Source: an uncultured bacterium (GTDB lineage: Bacteria > Verrucomicrobiota > Verrucomicrobiia > Verrucomicrobiales > DEV007). From it: 64,000 nt of DNA. The position numbers were made by a program, and so were the translations under genes. Positions 2,359-12,223 of this stretch are shown one piece after another. Positions within the stretch are counted from its first letter, which is position 1. Every line of letters begins with the position of its first letter. The DNA lies in contig CAXBMO010000004.1 in NCBI GenBank assembly GCA_963977015.1, forward strand, positions 389,061 through 453,060, read 5' to 3'. The notes beneath the pieces are model-generated. The model made no database searches and was not told where the DNA came from. It saw only the letters and a list, made by a program, of their open reading frames with translations.

Positions 2359-3444
2359 TCATGAATCGGCTTCCGATGACGAGGTCATGATCTTGGCGAC
2401 ATACGGTGAGGTCATCGCTCGAAGCAGGGCGCTGTAGTCGAGCTGAAAGGGAATCTCGGCGCCAACGGTCAGGGCTTCATGACCGCGGACCGAATTCACA
2501 ATCAGGTGATCACTGCTGGCGGCCACGATCTCGATGCCGGGTGGCGCCTTGAGGCCGGCCGGATCAATGTCCTGACGCCCGATCGCGAGAATCGATTGGG
2601 ACATGAGTCCGCCATCAGGTCTCGGTTTCACGACGCCAAACGCGGACTGCGCCACCTCGCCCCAGGGTTTGGAAGGCTTGATCTTCGACTCGATCACTTC
2701 GGCAAACAAGGTGATCGCATCGGTATGCAACCCCTTGATTGGTTGCCGGTGAAGAGGCTCACACCCGAGCAGCATCGCTTCGCCCAATCGGAGATTATTG
2801 ATGCGCCCGGTGTCGGCTCCGCCCAGCGCCCAATCAAGGTTGGCGGAGTTTCCGCCGGAGACGATGCTGACAATCCCGCCAAAGGTGGCGTCGACCGAAT
2901 CCGCCAAGGCGGAGAGATCGCCCATGTTCTTCGTGTCGGGTGAGACTCCGCTGCGGCAAGCGAGGTTCGTCCCGATCCCCTTGAACGCGATGTTCGGGAG
3001 GCACAACGCTTCGCGCACCGATTCCTCCAGGAGGTCGGGCATGATGCCTTCGCGGAGGTCTCCCAATTCGATCATGAGCACGACCCCATGCATGACATTC
3101 ATCTCTTGAGCGGCGGAAGACAGCTTGCGGATGACGGCCAATTCCGTGTTGAAGCTGACATCGGCAAGCGCAACGACCTTCTCTGCCTGACTCGCCATCG
3201 GCGTGCGGATGAGCGTCATCGATGCCGAAACGTAAGCGTTGCGCATCGATTCGATGTTCTCAACGCGGGAGTCACCAAGACCGGCTACACCAGCCCGAAG
3301 CCACACGTTTGCAATCTCTGGTAGACCCAGTGTCGACTTCGTTACGCCGGTGACGGAGATCCCACGCTGGCCGAGCCGTTGGACCAGGGTGAGAGCATTG
3401 TGATGGAGTTTTTCGAGATCGATCTGTAACCGCGGTGCGGTCAT
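2359..3444 (-). CDS. PLP-dependent alanine/ornithine racemase family protein
   Basis: GVTK (PLP lysine), GDSRVEN, ELGDLREG, SGGNS, LRLGEA, SSDHL motifs; 4-nt overlap with upstream DUF1611 gene. Confidence 0.85.
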   Translation of the reverse strand: MTAPRLQIDLEKLHHNALTLVQRLGQRGISVTGVTKSTLGLPEIANVWLRAGVAGLGDSRVENIESMRNAYVSASMTLIRTPMASQAEKVVALADVSFNTELAVIRKLSSAAQEMNVMHGVVLMIELGDLREGIMPDLLEESVREALCLPNIAFKGIGTNLACRSGVSPDTKNMGDLSALADSVDATFGGIVSIVSGGNSANLDWALGGADTGRINNLRLGEAMLLGCEPLHRQPIKGLHTDAITLFAEVIESKIKPSKPWGEVAQSAFGVVKPRPDGGLMSQSILAIGRQDIDPAGLKAPPGIEIVAASSDHLIVNSVRGHEALTVGAEIPFQLDYSALLRAMTSPYVAKIMTSSSEADS

Positions 3445-4643
3445 GCGGCCCCAGCCGCGACGCTCCCCCGAATATCCGGGAACGCCGAAAGCACCATCTC
3501 CACCAACCGCTCAGGAGACCGCGTCAGCGCGTCGGTCACGGGGATTCCCAATTCGCGCTCATACTTTACGATCGCAGCGGAAACCTCCGCATCGGTCATG
3601 TGTTCGTGGTTGATGGTCATGCCAATGACCTTGGTCGCGGCAAAGGTCTCGATCAGGTTGATCTCGCTCGCCGGAGTCGGCATCGCCATCTTGTCGAAGT
3701 CGCATCGATACTGTCTTCCCGGTGCGTGTTGCAGGACAACGCCGTCAGGACAACTGCCCCGGATGATGAAACTGGACGTCGAATAGGCGGGATGACTCAG
3801 CGCCCCCTGACCTTCGATCAGGATGACATCGGGATTCTCCTTCTCAAACGCTTCCACGATCGTGGCTTCCAGCTCGCCCGCGCAAAATTGGGAGGGAACC
3901 GCATCAAGAGCCATGCCGTAGCGAGCTCCCTGGATCAATCCGGTTTGACCGGTGCCAATCATGACGGCTCTGACTCCATGCTCTTCGAGAGCGCGGGCCA
4001 TCACGGTGGCCGTCGTGCGTTTCCCAATGGCGCAGTCCGTGCCAAGCACGGCAATGACCGGACAGGTAACCTCCGCAATGCGACCGGTGAAAACGCGAAG
4101 ATCTTTCTTGTCGCGAGGCCTTCGCACATCACGAATCACCACCTTGGATTTGGCAGACGCAGCGGCAAACTCCGGATCGTCATTCAAGAACTCATGAAGT
4201 CCATTCACAATGTTCATGCCAAGCTCAATGGCTCTCAGCATGAGCTTTCGTTCGGTAGGCGAAAGCATTCCCGTCGCCGGAGCGATCCCAAAAATGAAAT
4301 AGTCAGGGATGCGGTCCGCATGCGCCAAGGCCTCATCCAGATCCCGATAAATGGGGATTCCATTCGGTTTGTCATCAAGAACCGCACCGGTGTCCTGCCC
4401 CGCCTTCCCACTATCGATCACCGAAAGAATTTCGTATTTCTCCGAGTGCCGAACCAGTCCATTCGCCGTCTTTCCGTCGATGTTCCCGAAGTTGGCTTCG
4501 CAATAAACGATTGCGGTGGCGGATTGAAGGAGATCAACGATTGGCCGATACCGGGGCCGCTTGGTCAACTTGCGGTGAACTCCGGGACGCTGAGACGACA
4601 GACGAGGCTTCGGTGAAGCCGAAAAGGGTGGGTTTGTAGACAT
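3441..4643 (-). CDS. DUF1611 family P-loop protein (DgcN-like)
   Basis: GKTANGL, NGLHEFL, GTDCAIGKRTT, TGQTG, IEGQGALSHPAY motifs; ATG at 4643 preceded by GAGGAG. Confidence 0.85.
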   Translation of the reverse strand: MSTNPPFSASPKPRLSSQRPGVHRKLTKRPRYRPIVDLLQSATAIVYCEANFGNIDGKTANGLVRHSEKYEILSVIDSGKAGQDTGAVLDDKPNGIPIYRDLDEALAHADRIPDYFIFGIAPATGMLSPTERKLMLRAIELGMNIVNGLHEFLNDDPEFAAASAKSKVVIRDVRRPRDKKDLRVFTGRIAEVTCPVIAVLGTDCAIGKRTTATVMARALEEHGVRAVMIGTGQTGLIQGARYGMALDAVPSQFCAGELEATIVEAFEKENPDVILIEGQGALSHPAYSTSSFIIRGSCPDGVVLQHAPGRQYRCDFDKMAMPTPASEINLIETFAATKVIGMTINHEHMTDAEVSAAIVKYERELGIPVTDALTRSPERLVEMVLSAFPDIRGSVAAGAA

Positions 4644-4922
4644 GGATACTCCTCGAGCTAGGCTCAGAGGAGGCGACGGGATCGAGTCGACCGGAATTGG
4701 TCGAAAGTCAGCGAGAGGTCCCCACCAAGTTGGACTTGTGGATCCACTGTTACCACACACTGGTTGCCGCGTATAGGTTTACTTTCCGGCAACCCAATTC
4801 CCGCGATGCGATTTTCCAGGTTCCAGAAGCCGGCACCGTCCCCGCTCTTTCCCCACCCTGCCACGCTTGACAAGTTCACAGGCTCCCCACATTCTGCATC
4901 GGCCCTTCCGCAGATCACGGAG

Positions 4923-7088
4923 ATGACACCATTCCCACCAGACTATCAGCCCTCTCCCTTCTCGCTGCTTCTTCATCGGGGATGGATGCTAGTGCTCTTG
5001 CTGAACGCGCTCCTTCTCGGGCTCGCATCAGGATCTGACGAACTTCAAGGCGAAGATCCCGATTCCAGGAAACCCTACCAGGTCGCGGTGATCACCAGCA
5101 GTCAGGAAGGTTCCATCTCCACCACGATCGAAGCGATCAAGCGGTTTCTCGAAGCGGAAGCTCGCGACATCAATCGCGCCGGTGGGATTTCCGGCACGCC
5201 CATCAAACTCGTTTTCTATGACGACAACGAGGATGCCGAGCAAACCAAGGCCAAAGTCGAGGAAGCGCTCGGCGAAGAACGACTGATTGCAATGCTTGGA
5301 TTGTGGAGCTCATCCCGCGGGGCCGGGGTCCTCGATCTCATCGGCAGGAGCGGAGTTCCCTTCATCTCCGAAATCTCCCTGGATCAGCTTTTCCGAAGTC
5401 ATGACAACATCTTCACCCTAACCACTTCCGTCAGCGACGACACCCAGTTGTTTCGGCGCTTTCTTGCCGAAAATTTTTCCAGCGTTCAATTCGTCGGCGT
5501 GAACGACGACCTCTTCACCCTCGAGTTTCATCAGGCACTCGATGAGCTGAAAGGCACGTTGCAGATCATGGACGAACTTTGGGTCGACTCCAACAACGAG
5601 CTTTCCCAATCCGCCCTTGATGAAATCATCGCCGCCATCCGCGAACGCCAACCTTCCATCATCTGCATGGCGGCGGGAAGCTTCCGTGGAAGCGTCATTC
5701 TTCAGGCACTTGCCGAAGCCGACATCGATACACCCGTCTATTTTGCCACGGGCACGATCCAGCGGGTCTTGCGAAATCTGGATGGTGTCGATTACCGCGG
5801 AGCGCTCTATCAAAACAGCACGGATATCCCGTTTGTGGAAAACGAGCGCCTCGCTCAGATCCAACGTCACCCGGAATTCATCTCCCGACGCATCGACTAC
5901 TCCAATGACGACCTGGCCTACGGCTTTAGTTACGCCGACATGCTGGCCATGATTGCGGATGCCGCGAAGGACGCTCCTGACCTGAACCCCACCGGCCTGC
6001 GATCCCACATCAGTTCCCGGCTCCGGGAGATCAAAGCCGGTCAGCAGTTCTACGAAGGGGTCTGGCGCAACTGGGCCTTTACCAAGAATCGGGCCGTCTC
6101 ACAAGACAAGCTCCTTCACTGGCGCCCCAAGAACAGCCAGGACCTCAAGCTGTTCCCCACTCAATACCAGGCAAAACCAACCGGCCTCAGCCAGGTTCCC
6201 GTCGTTTATCTCAACATCGATATGGAGCAAATCCGATCGGTGGATAGTATGGAGAAGACGTTCGACGCGGACTTCTATATTTCCATGACCAGCAATCAGG
6301 AGATCACGCTGGACGACTTTGAATTCACCAATGCCTATCGCAGTAGCGGCAGCGGCGCGCCTCTCATCTCGAATCGCAATCTCAAGACGACCCAAATTCC
6401 CGGCAGCTCTGAAGTGCAACGGCTTTACAAAGTCTCCGGGCGTTTTCTCTTTGATCCAGACCTCGGAGACTACCCGTTCGACGAACAGCGATTCTCCATC
6501 TCGTTTCAACCGACCAACACCACCAGTCCCTTTCTGATTCAACCACCTCCCCCGACCCTGCGCGAGGATCGATTCGACATCGATGGATGGACCCTGTCTG
6601 AGGACGTCGGCTACGTCGGCACGGAAGAGGACATCATCTCCACCTTCCAGGATTACGGCTCCGGTCGCAGCATCCTCGCCTTCCACAAATTCAACTTCAC
6701 CTGGACCGCGCAACGCTACGTGCTGGACTACTACCTCCGCGTCGTCATCCCGCTCGCCCTCATTATGGTCGTCGCCTACTTCTCCGTCTTCATCCCGAAT
6801 TCCAAGTTCGACAGCGTCATCGCCATCCAGGTAACCGCACTCCTCTCCACCATCGCCCTCTACCTCGCCATCCCTAAAATGGACTCGGAGACCGCGACCA
6901 TGTCGGACCAGATCTTCCTCTTCACCGAAGCCGTCATCGGCCTCATGATCGCCTTCTCGATTTTGCGGGTGAACATCCCCAAACGCCTCCGCGTCCCGGC
7001 CACCCTCATCATGCTGGCCCAGGTCATCACCGTTCCCGTCCTCGTGCTCCTCATGGTCCGCTACGTCTGGATGGTTCAGGTTGGGTGA
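4923..7088 (+). CDS. Pentameric ligand-gated ion channel (Pro-loop family) with N-terminal type 1 periplasmic binding domain
   Basis: N-terminal INRAGGISGTPIKLVFYDD (LivJ-like binding protein); then beta-rich ECD with TFDADFY and DYPFDEQ; four C-terminal TM helices. Start 4923 or 4986. Confidence 0.8.
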   Translation: MTPFPPDYQPSPFSLLLHRGWMLVLLLNALLLGLASGSDELQGEDPDSRKPYQVAVITSSQEGSISTTIEAIKRFLEAEARDINRAGGISGTPIKLVFYDDNEDAEQTKAKVEEALGEERLIAMLGLWSSSRGAGVLDLIGRSGVPFISEISLDQLFRSHDNIFTLTTSVSDDTQLFRRFLAENFSSVQFVGVNDDLFTLEFHQALDELKGTLQIMDELWVDSNNELSQSALDEIIAAIRERQPSIICMAAGSFRGSVILQALAEADIDTPVYFATGTIQRVLRNLDGVDYRGALYQNSTDIPFVENERLAQIQRHPEFISRRIDYSNDDLAYGFSYADMLAMIADAAKDAPDLNPTGLRSHISSRLREIKAGQQFYEGVWRNWAFTKNRAVSQDKLLHWRPKNSQDLKLFPTQYQAKPTGLSQVPVVYLNIDMEQIRSVDSMEKTFDADFYISMTSNQEITLDDFEFTNAYRSSGSGAPLISNRNLKTTQIPGSSEVQRLYKVSGRFLFDPDLGDYPFDEQRFSISFQPTNTTSPFLIQPPPPTLREDRFDIDGWTLSEDVGYVGTEEDIISTFQDYGSGRSILAFHKFNFTWTAQRYVLDYYLRVVIPLALIMVVAYFSVFIPNSKFDSVIAIQVTALLSTIALYLAIPKMDSETATMSDQIFLFTEAVIGLMIAFSILRVNIPKRLRVPATLIMLAQVITVPVLVLLMVRYVWMVQVG

Positions 7089-7329
7089 CGTTCGGGCAGG
7101 CATCCTGCCATTACCAATTTGTCACCGACAAACGGGTAACCGATTGATCCCCCCCGCACGAACTTTCCTCCAAAACGTCCCTTGACCGTTCCGCCCATCT
7201 CGGATTCTCTATGCGGTATGCAAAGCAGGTTCACGACGGTTTCACCCCATCAGCCCAGCGCCGAATCCCGTGGCAAACTTCCAGACGTTATTTGACACTT
7301 CTGTCACCTGTAAAACGTTATCCCTAAAA

Positions 7330-7926
7330 ATGCTTACCCGGTTCCGCGATAAATATGGCGAGGGCGAAGGTGCCAGCGACGAGCTGAACCCTGCTTTCCT
7401 ATCACCACTTGAGGAACGAGCCATTGGCATCACGGAGCTTCTCAGTTCTTCAGGAGGCGCAACCTTTGCGAATGGTCTTTATCGCCTTCACGGGGCTGGA
7501 GACATCGGGGCTTGGACGAAAAACGTCGAAGCTACGTTCCCTGAGTATGAGGGGGCGTTGGTTTGTTTCGGATATGATTGGCTCGGCCGACACTTCGCTC
7601 TTGATACCACAACGGACAAAGGACAGTGGCAGATTTTACTCATCGAGCCAGGTGCTGGGGAAGCGATGCAGATTCCCAGCTCATTTGCGGATTTCCACAA
7701 CATTGAATTAGTTGAGTATGCTTCAGATGCGCTCGCTGAACCGTTTTTTATAGAGTGGCTTTCTTCGGGTGGCGCATTTCCAAAACCCACAGAGTGTATC
7801 GCTTACAAGACACCACTCTTCCTGAATGGATCAGATACTATTGAGAATTTGGAGGTCTCTGATATGGACGTGTATTGGCATTTGTGCGGTCAACTTCGCC
7901 AATCAATCACAACCGGATTAGGGTAG
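7330..7926 (+). CDS. Tdi1/DUF1851-like toxin immunity protein (gene cassette 1)
   Basis: GLYRLH, FGYDWLGRHF, C-x-AYKTPLFLNGSDTIENLEVSDMDVYW resemble the GAD-like/DUF1851 immunity family; lower GC than flanks. Confidence 0.7.
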   Translation: MLTRFRDKYGEGEGASDELNPAFLSPLEERAIGITELLSSSGGATFANGLYRLHGAGDIGAWTKNVEATFPEYEGALVCFGYDWLGRHFALDTTTDKGQWQILLIEPGAGEAMQIPSSFADFHNIELVEYASDALAEPFFIEWLSSGGAFPKPTECIAYKTPLFLNGSDTIENLEVSDMDVYWHLCGQLRQSITTGLG

Positions 7927-8961
7927 GCCCAGGGTTTGAACCGGTTTGAACCTGCCCTCCACACCACGGGACATGCGGGTCCGCACGCGGCGGTTCCAGT
8001 CAGTCATGCAAGTCCCCGTGGACCAGGCAAGGGCGCCATCTCCATGAACTCTCTTGGATGCTTTGAATTGGTTTTCAGTTTGAGTATCTGACTCGCTTCG
8101 CTCGGCTCTCTGCCCGCAACCCTACTCGGTTTGTGGCTCGCCCAATCGGGTTCAACGCCTTGAGCAGGTGCTCGGGTCGGTTCATCCGATTGGTTCGGTC
8201 CTTCATCGGGTGGATCCTCCGTTGGGCGCAAGCGCCGTCCAGTTCGTTTCCGCCATTTGGTGAGCCCTCCGGTTTCTTAGTTTAAACGGGCGATTCAACA
8301 CCCCCGGCTCGTCTTCCACGACTACTACGACCTCGGCTGACATTTACCTCCGGGACTGAATGAGGGAATTTCGCTGTGTTGTGCTAGCTCGTTCCATCCC
8401 GTCGGTCTCGGATGAGGTTCTTGTTCATCGGCTGATGGCTTTGATGTCGCTTTGGCGCTCCACTCTCCGGGCAGCCCAATGGCTGTCGGTGTCCGCTTCG
8501 CTCCCATTCCCATAACCTGCCTCCCCACATTCGGTTACCCGGCCGCAGTTGGCCTCTGCTAGTTCTTTGCATCCTTCAGATGTTCATTCTATAAACAGGG
8601 GACTTGAACGAATGGCGCAAAGATAAGCGGGGTCATCGATAAACTTAGCCGGGTCTCCACAGGGATTTATTCCCGTGGAACAGAGACCACCCACCAGACC
8701 ATTTCCATCCATACGCTCGCCCCGGCTGGCCTTGCGCCAGTCGAGCGCTGACGCCGTTTGGCACCGTCAAAACCCAGTTCGTGTGGCTGGAAGGAGTCAG
8801 CGCTCCACCGGCATGAAGCCGGTGGGGGCGATGGGTTTCAGGAGGCGGTTCTGGTGGTTGATCGAGCACCCACCGGGGCGAGCCCGGAGGAGAGCTAAGG
8901 TGGTTAACCTTGCGCCATTCGGACTTGAACCCCTTTTGGTTTCAGCCCATGCTGGACGTAC
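7917..8961 (-). mobile_element. ORF-less group IIC intron inserted in an attC site
   Basis: Minus strand: 5' end GTACGTCCAGCATGGG after exon TTGT; GTCAGCCGAGGTCGTAGTAG and GAAGGACCGAAC (DII/DIII landmarks); DV GAACCGCCGCGTGCGGACCCGCATGTCCCGTGGTG with CGC triad; DVI ending CCTACCC. No RT ORF. 3' boundary uncertain (7917-7921). Confidence 0.85.
8610..8920. mobile_element. 311-bp non-autonomous element (MITE, IS4-like ends) nested in the intron
   Basis: Terminal inverted repeats GAATGGCGCAA...TTGCGCCATTC (15/17 when extended); perfect 10-bp direct repeat GGACTTGAAC at 8600-8609 and 8921-8930. Confidence 0.85.
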
Positions 8962-9084
8962 ACAATGCGCCGCACACAGACACGGACCCTGGGGAGTTAT
9001 CAGAAGGCACCTCACTCACAACATTCGTCAGCCTGCTGCGAACTGCTCCCCCTCGGTCCTTACTGGTCAGCGCTGACGTTCTGC
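8962..9084 (+). other. attC site 1 (right part; R'' box split by the intron)
   Basis: ACAATGCGCCGCAC..GGACCCTGGGGAG pairs imperfectly with CTCCCCCTCGGTCC..GGTCAGCGCTGACGTT; R' GTTCTGC at 9078-9084. Confidence 0.75.
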
Positions 9085-9093
9085 TTTTAAGTC

Positions 9094-9378
9094 ATGGCAT
9101 CGACATTCTTCGTTCAACAGCGGACAGGTGAGACTTGGAACGAGCTCACCGGCAAGTTCATGGAATTTTGTATTCAGATCAAGGGGGTGACGCGGGGTGG
9201 ATGCCACGAAGGGGATTCAAACCCAGCGGAGCTTGACGGGCAGGTCTATGCCTCTGTTGCGATCCCTGATCACTCACCTGACCTTATGACATATCTAACG
9301 GAGTGGGCGAGCTCTGAAGATCGACAAATATGGTCTAAAGAACAGTTTGCAGAACAAGGCGTCAATCTCAATACCTGA
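9094..9378 (+). CDS. Hypothetical protein (gene cassette 2)
   Basis: 94-aa ORF starting 9 nt after GTTCTGC and running into the complementary GCAGAAC box. Confidence 0.65.
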   Translation: MASTFFVQQRTGETWNELTGKFMEFCIQIKGVTRGGCHEGDSNPAELDGQVYASVAIPDHSPDLMTYLTEWASSEDRQIWSKEQFAEQGVNLNT

Positions 9379-9472
9379 ACCGCTCCAAGTTCAAACTGCC
9401 ATGACCATCACCATTTAACCCGGAAGTCGGAGCGTGCCCTCGGGCAGGTGTATAAGGAATTCGACGTTCACA
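9349..9472 (+). other. attC site 2
   Basis: R'' GCAGAAC (complement of the cassette start GTTCTGC) followed by AAGGCG; imperfect hairpin (ACCTG/CAGGT, CGCTCC/GGAGCG); R' GTTCACA; 124 bp. Confidence 0.7.
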
Positions 9473-9473
9473 G

Positions 9474-9743
9474 ATGAAAGAGCGATCACGCTTCCGATTA
9501 CTTTCAGGTTTTCTCCTGCTGATCATCGGCACGATGGGCGGCATTGCCCCCTTGAAAGACGGCCTACATTTCGTGACTGGGATCGACAAGTCTTACATCT
9601 CAAATACTACTGACACTGTCACTCACGCAGATCTCTGGCTGATGCATAACGGCGTCGGGAAGCTTGTAGCCACAGTGACCGGATTATACATCCTTCTTCC
9701 AGCGTTCTGGTCCGCATTGACGAAGAAGAAACAGAAGAATTGA
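9474..9743 (+). CDS. Small two-TM membrane protein (gene cassette 3)
   Basis: ATG 1 nt after R' GTTCACA; two hydrophobic segments; no downstream attC recognised. Confidence 0.6.
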   Translation: MKERSRFRLLSGFLLLIIGTMGGIAPLKDGLHFVTGIDKSYISNTTDTVTHADLWLMHNGVGKLVATVTGLYILLPAFWSALTKKKQKN

Positions 9744-12014: not shown

Positions 12015-12164
12015 GGTTTTCGGCACCCCTAAGCTCGAGGGCTACGGAAAGGCAAGTTTTCGTCGACAATCGCGCCCCAACATCCAGTCGACGCAGTCCC
12101 CAGTTCAACGCTCCCCCATTGCAAAGCGCCGCAAGGCCTTCGTTCCCACAACGCCCATGCTGGG

Positions 12165-12223
12165 CACACACAAGGCATTGTAGTGGAACGCTGATCGCGT
12201 CCGCTAAACGCGAGACGTTCTGC
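12165..12223 (+). other. Degenerate short attC-like site before the BrnT/BrnA cassette
   Basis: ACAAGGCATTGTAGTGGAACGC-TGATC-GCGTCCGCTAAACGCGAGAC hairpin ending in R' GTTCTGC (12217-12223). Confidence 0.55.

Follow-up and report, generated by a model that had tools for sequence, protein, structure and literature searches.

The window analysed here is a 64-kb stretch of contig C4 in the genome assembly of an uncultured bacterium (GTDB lineage Verrucomicrobiales; DEV007). Its subject is an element at positions 7917-8961 of the minus strand, located behind a small immunity-like gene and within a site resembling attC, the recombination site of integron cassettes. An earlier interpretation made from the letters alone, hereafter the sequence-only reading, had described this element as a group IIC intron without an open reading frame (ORF). 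Coordinates given without a contig are positions in the window, the source genome is denoted G000, and other genomes, contigs and fetched loci carry the prefixes G, C and L. The recurrent comparators are a related intron encoding a reverse transcriptase (RT) on contig C17 of the same genome, the intron copies of genome G126 (same genus), and S.ma.I2, an intron of the group IIC-attC kind from Serratia marcescens. In the following list of features, DI to DVI are the ribozyme domains, J2/3 is the junction between DII and DIII, EBS1 and IBS1 are exon- and intron-binding site 1, MITE is a miniature inverted-repeat transposable element and T6SS is the type VI secretion system.

7270-7926, plus strand: cassette ORF, SUKH / T6SS Tdi1-type immunity-like, 218 aa; its stop codon lies within the last 10 nt of the intron
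7905-7916, minus strand: 3' exon CCGGTTGTGATT, the expected remainder of the R'' box of the first attC-type site (attC-A); starts with C
7917-8961, minus strand: the whole element, very probably a decayed ORF-less group IIC intron; 1045 nt, or 724 nt without the MITE and its duplication
7917-7961, minus strand: DVI; 10-nt tandem duplication, G-to-A change beside the bulged A, 3' end CCCTAAT
7964-7993, minus strand: DV, CCGCCGCG U GCG GACC CGC AUG UCCCGUGG; two C.C mismatches in the lower helix
7996-8191, minus strand: DIV remnant without ORF, delimited by alignment with relatives; no RT match
8000-8007, minus strand: ORF-end remnant ATGACTGA within the DIV remnant
8043-8051, minus strand: remnant of the RT ribosome site and start, GAGTTCATG, within the DIV remnant
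8192-8340, minus strand: J2/3 and DIII, TCAGCCGAGGTCGTAGTAG ... GAAGGACCGAACC; G126-type
8318-8452, minus strand: remaining DI core; RF02001 at 38.7 bits, with the 3' third of the model forced onto DIII sequence
8340-8341, minus strand: junction of a 71-nt deletion that removed 3' strands of DI and all of DII; the nearest relative switches here from the C17 to the G126 lineage
8373-8384, minus strand: EBS1 loop GCACAACACAGC, in a hairpin loop of the RF02001 match; its ACAA is complementary to the 5'-exon TTGT (IBS1)
8443-8508, minus strand: 66-nt mini-element AATGGGAGCGAAGCGG...AAGCGACATC in DI; absent from C17 and from 7 of 9 ORF-less relatives
8610-8920, minus strand: MITE of 311 nt in a DI hairpin loop; inverted ends GAATGGCGCAAGG.../...TTGCGCCATTC; 10-bp duplication GTTCAAGTCC at 8921-8930 and 8600-8609
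8947-8961, minus strand: intron 5' end GTACGTCCAGCATGG, directly after TTGT 8962-8965; the same end type occurs in C17 and S.ma.I2
8962-9084, minus strand: 5' exon, the larger part of the attC-A bottom strand; box GCAGAAC at 9078-9084, imperfect long hairpin, TTGT at 8962-8965
9349-9472, minus strand: second attC-type site (attC-B), unoccupied; box TGTGAAC at 9466-9472, empty TTGT/T at 9354/9353; between ORFs 9094-9378 and 9474-9743
12148-12169, minus strand: 22-nt stub, the 5' end GTGTGCCCAGCATGGGCGTTGT of another intron, of G126 type; preceded by TTGT 12170-12173, with a further GCAGAAC box upstream

Direct reading of the sequence gave the minus-strand junction at 8961 as ...GCGGCGCATTGT/GTACGTCCAGCATGG (longer reading GTACGTCCAGCATGGGC) and the 3' terminus at 7917 as ...CCTACCCTAAT, i.e. 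GGGCCTACCCTAAT. The sequence-only reading had placed the 5' end directly after TTGT, had estimated a length of ~720 nt without the MITE and had allowed ~190 nt between DIII and DV. These statements agreed with the measurements, as the end was read where expected, the length was 724 nt, and the gap between the end of DIII (~8192-8204) and the start of DV (7993) was ~200 nt. The landmarks that it had named for DII and DIII were recovered in part, since DIII was present and DII had been lost in the 71-nt deletion. A complete six-domain group II ribozyme was not found: homology identified DIII, DV, DVI, a fragment of DI and the remains of DIV, and DII was gone together with the DI core's 3' strands. 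Judged by its sequence, the element is a derivative of a group II intron ribozyme and no intact member of that class.

When the window was scanned with Rfam, two matches reached gathering level, a tRNA and RF02001 (group-II-D1D4-3), the latter at 8318-8452(-) with 38.7 bits against a gathering score of 32. A tblastn search of the genome with the C17-type RT gave no match in this part of contig C4. The putative DV/DVI of the element was identified by alignment with 15 relatives and by the covariation in that alignment: over the 16 sequences 93.9% of the cells were paired, compared with 45-55% for slid partners, and 7 pairs were changed on both sides. DV was 30-31 nt long, with a 3-bp upper helix, and IBS1 TTGT could pair over 4 nt with EBS1 ACAA; the EBS1 loop with its ACAA was conserved in 10/10 aligned copies. 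The assignment to group II introns of the IIC kind and the lack of an RT were upheld, the class being judged on the RT of the C17 relative.

The RT-encoding relative was found by a search of the assembly with the 1045-nt query, as had been proposed by the sequence-only reading for the parent of the element. One set of the 23 matches formed a collinear full-length intron, intact and related, at G000:C17:848-2720(-), which scored 99.8 bits with RF02001, 46.4 with RF00029 (the DV/DVI model) and 36.2 with RF01998. Its RT frame was open over 519 aa without stops, and YADD was read in the DNA. Only RVT_1 (1.3e-42) and GIIM (1.3e-14) were found among the Pfam domains, i.e. a class C RT without an endonuclease domain, and the NCBIfam model of group II RT/maturases, TIGR04416, gave 416 bits at a cut-off of 300. 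The closest solved structure was the GsI-IIC RT (2.4e-122), followed by 7uim, a group II intron RT/maturase (3.8e-107) which we take to be IIC as well, and LtrA (8.7e-48). As the GsI-IIC RT was the best match and LtrA was far weaker, the lineage was assigned to class C. The source genome also carried a second, unrelated group II intron on C18 and fragments of the first intron family on C6, C16, C31 and C8. One of these, a 3' fragment at G000:C31:26603-26930(+) ending in CCTACCCGAT, was followed by tandem TAGCCCTACCCGAT-like repeats, in which the last intron bases and the exon start were repeated several times over.

The target was analysed across the bacterial family, in which the intron family was present in 51 of 134 genomes; the loci fetched contained 34 distinct 5' junctions. 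The 5' exon ended in TTGT at 31 of the 34 junctions, which bears out the expectation that sister copies are placed at attC sites, while TTGG was found once (the C17 copy) and other bases twice. The intron itself started with GTGTG (25), GTACG (6), GTGCG (2) or GTTCG (1). GTACG had been regarded as a non-canonical start, a view that had to be abandoned; since it occurred in the family, RT-encoding copies included, and in S.ma.I2, GUACG was taken as the lineage's own form. The AACG of an RYYYAAC-type box (GCAGAAC, GGCGAAC, GCCTAAC, GTTCAAC and other variants) was located at -116 to -120 in at least 19 of the 34 junctions, and the GCAGAAC of the window at -119. The family 3' end was CCTACCCGAT, and T was the next base at 17 of the 18 ends that could be paired.

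The family introns ran antisense to series of small ORFs sharing one strand; their 3' end fell at the stop of one ORF, and the box stood directly before the ATG of the next. This layout was seen in G070:C15 and in the window, where ATG 9094 followed the box at 9078-9084 and ATG 9474 followed the one at 9466-9472. The window element was placed as proposed earlier, antisense to the cassette ORF 7270-7926 and, on the bottom strand of a site of attC type, directly behind TTGT. Unoccupied sites of the form RNNNAACG, ~100-115 nt, TTGTT were arrayed directly beside the integron integrase IntI in sister genomes, with 8 sites compared to 0.7 in shuffled sequence in G070:C18 and 8 compared to 1.3 in G126:C21; the adjoining IntI proteins scored 367.9 and 376.2 bits, respectively (NCBIfam cut-off 265). 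The ~120-nt geometry of these arrays was shared by attC-B. A single cassette separates this free TTGT/T site from the occupied one, and the genome carries an intact RT-encoding intron. The 22-nt stub is a trace of a second, almost wholly deleted insertion in the same cluster.

According to the parts of PMC7923331 and PMC3001079 consulted, IIC-attC introns enter the bottom strand of the attC at TTGT/T within its R'' box, and their orientation is the reverse of that of the cassettes. S.ma.I2 on pSCH909 (locus L138), between aadB and the next cassette, was read as TTGT/GTACGCCCGACATGGGC ... CTACCCGAT/TAGGCC with an ACAA loop. It resembled the window lineage in the 5' end GUACGCCC..CAUGGGC, the EBS1 ACAA and the 3' end CUACCCGAU. 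The full-length relative encoded a class C RT, as do the group IIC-attC introns (S.ma.I2 and the intron behind blaIMP-4 cassettes); unlike these, the window copy had no RT ORF and was situated in a cluster without an integrase. The host attCs were ~120-125 nt long, in contrast to the short attCs of class 1 integrons, and were of a type common to genera of this bacterial family.

No integron integrase was found in the window, so the locus was classed as a CALIN, a cluster of attC sites lacking an integrase, and the earlier label "cassette 1" had to be dropped. ORF 6099-7103(-) had no Pfam family, the real gene at this place being a plus-strand periplasmic-binding protein. The only IntI above the curated cut-off in G000 was located at C1:216518-217420(+) (291 bits), and no attC array was recognisable in its flanks, of which 20 kb were covered to one side and ~14.6 kb to the opposite side. 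Sites of attC type were scattered over C4, C17, C30, C31 and C36 of this genome. A strict RYYYAAC...GTTRRRY pattern matched in the window only by chance, inside the intron and at one other place, and a relaxed attC pattern was uninformative over the whole genome (421 matches, ~241 expected). A motif common to two sites, TGCGGCGCWTTG, was discarded as being at chance level, since it was found twice and 37 of 100 shuffles reached that number. In G070, an 87-aa C-terminal IntI remnant (90 bits, model positions 253-315) was observed in L101 at 1749-1937 (G070:C15:1197748-1197936, minus strand), adjoining an array in which each of the first three attCs is occupied by an ORF-less intron.

Further, the window copy was compared with C17 and nine ORF-less relatives (10 aligned copies). 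The MITE, the mini-element, the 71-nt deletion, an extra 43-nt stretch in DIV (8064-8106, not seen in the compared relatives) and the DVI duplication were each confined to the window copy. The deleted 71 nt, in which three DI helices have their 3' strands and which include the hairpin of DII, were present in C17 and in all 9 ORF-less relatives. RF02001 scored 99.8-119.7 bits in C17 and the 13 full-length matches of the relatives compared with 38.7 bits in the window; this fall and the misaligned 3' third were attributed to the deletion, because the missing 71 nt supply the 3' strands of the helices. In DV, the predicted fold of the window, with the two C.C mismatches of the lower helix, absorbed a 2-nt bulge that was kept in 6/6 relatives. 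In DVI, GGTTCAAACC was present twice in tandem (7933-7952), and both the 3' end (CCCTAAT) and the base following it (C) were altered.

The MITE implied by the sequence-only reading proved to be real. It interrupts a hairpin GGGG-TTCAAGT-CCCC, for which the relatives have uninterrupted GGGGTTCAAGTCCCC. A search of the G000 assembly gave five further copies of 86-94% identity (C8:29142-29453, C1:557266-557565, C10:5913-6223, C6:339912-340213 and C36:46391-46649), and the sequence was short, non-coding, multicopy and bounded by inverted ends; the duplication was 10/10 in the window and 8/10 and 7/10 at two older copies. The MITE family was ~311 nt long with inverted ends GAATGGCGCAAGGTTAACC.../...GCTTAACCTTGCGCCATTC and a ~10-bp target duplication, and two of its copies (C8 and C6) adjoined intron fragments. 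An ORF-less copy in L100 (G126:C17:6000-13000, at ~3078-5000, minus strand) had its first ~70 nt split off by ~1.25 kb of unrelated DNA, which is another mobile insertion near the same DI region.

The mini-element looks like a tiny mobile element. It had the form GGAGCGAAGCGGA-(short hairpin)-CCCGAAGGGTGGAGCGAAGCGACATCA over 62-66 nt with a GCGAAGC motif at each end, and no Rfam match covered it in the scan of the window. Matches were present in 17 of the 134 genomes. Further copies were located at G000:C6:270612-270678, within introns in L104 (G104:C430) and L101 (G070:C15), and, outside any intron, at G105:C53:8057-8124. Similar insertions in the G104 and G070a introns, three in each, were situated at other positions than in the window.

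The window copy was also a mosaic. Element positions 1-620 were 90-96% like C17 and 75-80% like G126, and positions 621-950 were 84-93% like G126 copies over 82-100% of their length, where C17 aligned over 33-87% only. No second copy of the mosaic form was found by sequence search of the G000 assembly. Since the first switch of lineage coincided with the 71-nt deletion, we concluded that the window copy was created or reshaped by template switching or by recombination of one intron copy with another.

ORF-less introns were not limited to the window. Short copies with both ends, 665-690 nt long, were found in G126, G070, G029 and G088, and longer ones, swollen by mini-element insertions, in G104 and G070a. 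Complete ORF-less copies were thus present in at least 5 genomes of relatives, from 5 genera of one bacterial family, besides the decayed copy of the window; further copies were held by G072, G117 and G035, not all ends of which were caught by the end patterns used. Over 11 loci, RF02001 gave 13 full-length matches of 101-119.7 bits and one partial match of 53.8 bits in the insertion-laden G104 copy, which marks DI as intact in most copies. All ORF-less copies kept GGCAGAGAAAGAGAGTTCATG, the ribosome site and start of the RT, followed by ~35-45 nt and then DV. The full-length relative in G126, L049 (G126:C3), had a degenerate DV and a stop in the RT frame; the ORF-less copies of the same genome keep a well-paired DV.

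Copies b, c and d of G070 were 99.4-99.8% identical at three different attCs with different flanking ORFs, and copies b and c of G126 were 98% identical at different attCs. Near-identical copies at different attCs point to recent copying of the ORF-less form, and these sisters look intact and recently mobile. The proposal of a non-autonomous element mobilised in trans was accordingly retained for the family and not for the window copy in its present state, in view of the loss in DI and DII, the mispaired DV and the two insertions. In G029 no RT was matched by the C17 RT query (E 1e-10) or TIGR04416; in G070 and G088 only RT fragments or distant RTs were matched by the C17 query, and nothing exceeded the TIGR04416 cut-off. 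These three assemblies are 93-96% complete and repeats may be unassembled.

In a ribozyme tree of 15 rows and 624 columns, the window grouped with C17, G034 and G043 (98/99), and the G126 copies grouped with the G126 full-length intron (100/100). The ORF-less state needed at least 3 changes, as forced by the starred branches, and a single origin of the ORF loss was rejected on this tree. Mosaicism undermines any single ribozyme tree.

Based on these results, we consider it highly probable that the element is an ORF-less intron of the group IIC-attC type in the bottom strand of an attC, and that this copy is a dead relic. It was proposed that an intron of this kind reverse-spliced into the bottom strand behind the small immunity-like cassette gene, the target being chosen by pairing of the EBS1 loop ACAA with the TTGT in which the folded attC strand ends on its 3' side, a choice which would orient the intron antisense to the cassette and bring its 3' end to the stop codon of the gene. 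The window copy would belong to a set of ORF-less derivatives, 665-690 nt long, in whose DIV the ribosome-binding and start region of the RT is retained. Such derivatives would need an RT in trans, for which the intact C17 intron is the candidate in this genome. The copy would have died later, through its mosaic make-up combined with the 71-nt deletion, the mispaired DV, the DVI duplication and the arrival of the MITE and the mini-element in DI. Because the folding of the ribozyme was presumably lost, it should neither splice nor move. The remainder would form a 1-kb wedge in a cluster without an integrase, and the 1045-bp insertion, which parts the R'' end (7905-7916) from the remainder of attC-A (8962-9084), plausibly disables this site, the partner box of which is disrupted and reads GT/CCGGT.

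Several observations weigh against this reading. The 3' exon of the window opens with C, the exception to the family rule, and pairs with the GCAGAAC box in 4 of 7 positions only; the two flanks may come from different attCs. An imperfect hairpin lies upstream at most family sites, and that of attC-A was no more stable as DNA than shuffled sequences (z -1.0); fold energies were likewise unremarkable for attC-B (z +0.9) and the C17 site (z -0.84). As the hairpin energy was not significant, the attC identity rests on comparison. RF00029 was placed exactly at 7917-7995(-) with only 17.4 bits (E 2.5; gathering score 40). The score was weak lineage-wide (the RT-encoding relative in G072 and the copies of G070 and G029 missed E 0.1, and G088 reached 28.7 bits), and because intact relatives score low too, it is no proof of decay. 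The C17 RT was about equally near to the GsI-IIC RT (~49% identity, counted on the alignment) and to the RTs of attC introns (43.4% for S.ma.I2, 49.8% for the IMP-4-linked intron), identities which leave its membership of the IIC-attC RT clade putative. The inactivity of the window copy is a deduction from its structure.

Among the alternatives, the origin of the element as a recombination product that was never one mobile unit is possible, though we would not rank it as probable. Introns of C17 and G126 type would have been present in neighbouring attCs, and the DNA between them, perhaps with cassettes, would have been deleted, leaving flanks from two attCs. The switch of the nearest relative exactly at the 71-nt deletion is what such an event would leave, as is a 3' exon that starts with C and mismatches the 5'-exon box; relatives provide examples of introns in tandem, occupying one attC after the next (3.6 kb of G070:C15 contain three, and G126:C26 likewise has three), and the G126-type stub is 3.2 kb away. 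However, DV/DVI of the window was again closer to C17 (90%, compared with 83% for G126), so that a second exchange would be needed, and patchy gene conversion or RT template switching fits as well. The mismatch of the flanks proves little, because box complementarity beyond GTT/AAC was poor at many undisputed sites, and no intact parental arrangement was found.

It appears very improbable that the window element has kept its ability to splice and that the C17 RT mobilises it in trans. An intact related RT exists in the genome, the EBS1, the 5' end and the start-codon region of DIV are kept, and ORF-less sisters appear recently mobile elsewhere; insertions in terminal loops are sometimes tolerated. 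These points are outweighed by the absence of 71 nt that C17 and all nine ORF-less relatives possess, the reduced RF02001 score, the two DV mismatches with the altered predicted fold, and the failure to find a second copy of this form in the genome. Nor did it seem at all likely that the relic is kept as a service to the host, for instance as an insulator or an outward promoter serving the cassette that follows. For S.ma.I2, the sections of PMC3001079 consulted show expression of the following cassette from outward promoters located in DI/DII, and the relic lies directly upstream of ORF 9094-9378. In contrast, DII, one of the two promoter positions given there, is deleted here, a sigma-70 scan gave no promoter inside 7917-8961 (2 in 6 kb, 2.5 expected, with a consensus that may not fit this organism), and the pile-up of insertions looks like neutral decay. 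Least credible of all was an ordinary IIC intron behind a terminator or another palindrome, with attC over-interpreted: IIC introns mostly use terminators according to the consulted portion of PMC4424553, the window hairpin is not unusually stable and the window has no integrase, but the junction has no T-run terminator, the upstream gene and the intron are antisense to each other, the ATG of the next ORF comes directly after the RYYYAAC box at -119, the same type of site is arrayed beside IntI in sister genomes, and the TTGT/T junction is that of S.ma.I2.

Beyond the interpretation of the window copy as a dead IIC-attC relic, a broader view can be offered only tentatively. ORF-less IIC-attC introns might be a persistent class of 665-690-nt non-autonomous retroelements, with an intact ribozyme and the RT-binding part of DIV, that multiply in the integron arrays of this family, also in genomes where no intact group II RT could be found. 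The RT would have an outside source (an intron that is transient or arrives by horizontal transfer, or else an RT of unrelated kind), segments would be exchanged with full-length copies, and the window copy would be a corpse of this class. Such exchange, if true, would explain why the ORF loss falls at three or more places on the ribozyme tree.

In the consulted portion of PMC4424553, ORF-less introns are described as rare in bacteria and nearly always accompanied by a related RT-encoding intron. Like the ORF-less bacterial introns that use an RT in trans, the window copy had such a relative in its genome and kept the RT-start region in DIV. In contrast to the rarity given in that portion, complete ORF-less copies were found here in at least 5 genomes, in three of which no intact cognate RT was detected. 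A full-text literature search gave no description of ORF-less IIC-attC introns, although an earlier one may exist. The IIC-attC introns in the literature examined all encode their own RT.

IIC-attC introns have been proposed to help build cassettes and are, to our knowledge, the one retroelement known to use integron recombination sites. The window copy is chiefly a record of the death of such elements, through recombination, deletion and use as a landing pad for small mobile DNAs; the interesting part is the pattern at the level of the family. There, the ORF-less form is common, near-identical at different attCs within a genome and present without a visible cognate RT, and ORF-less bacterial introns may be more common than RT-based surveys suggest. 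The ORF-less copies offer a minimal donor RNA of natural origin for work on the recognition of folded DNA targets by IIC introns, and insertions that separate one end of an attC from the other may immobilise cassettes.

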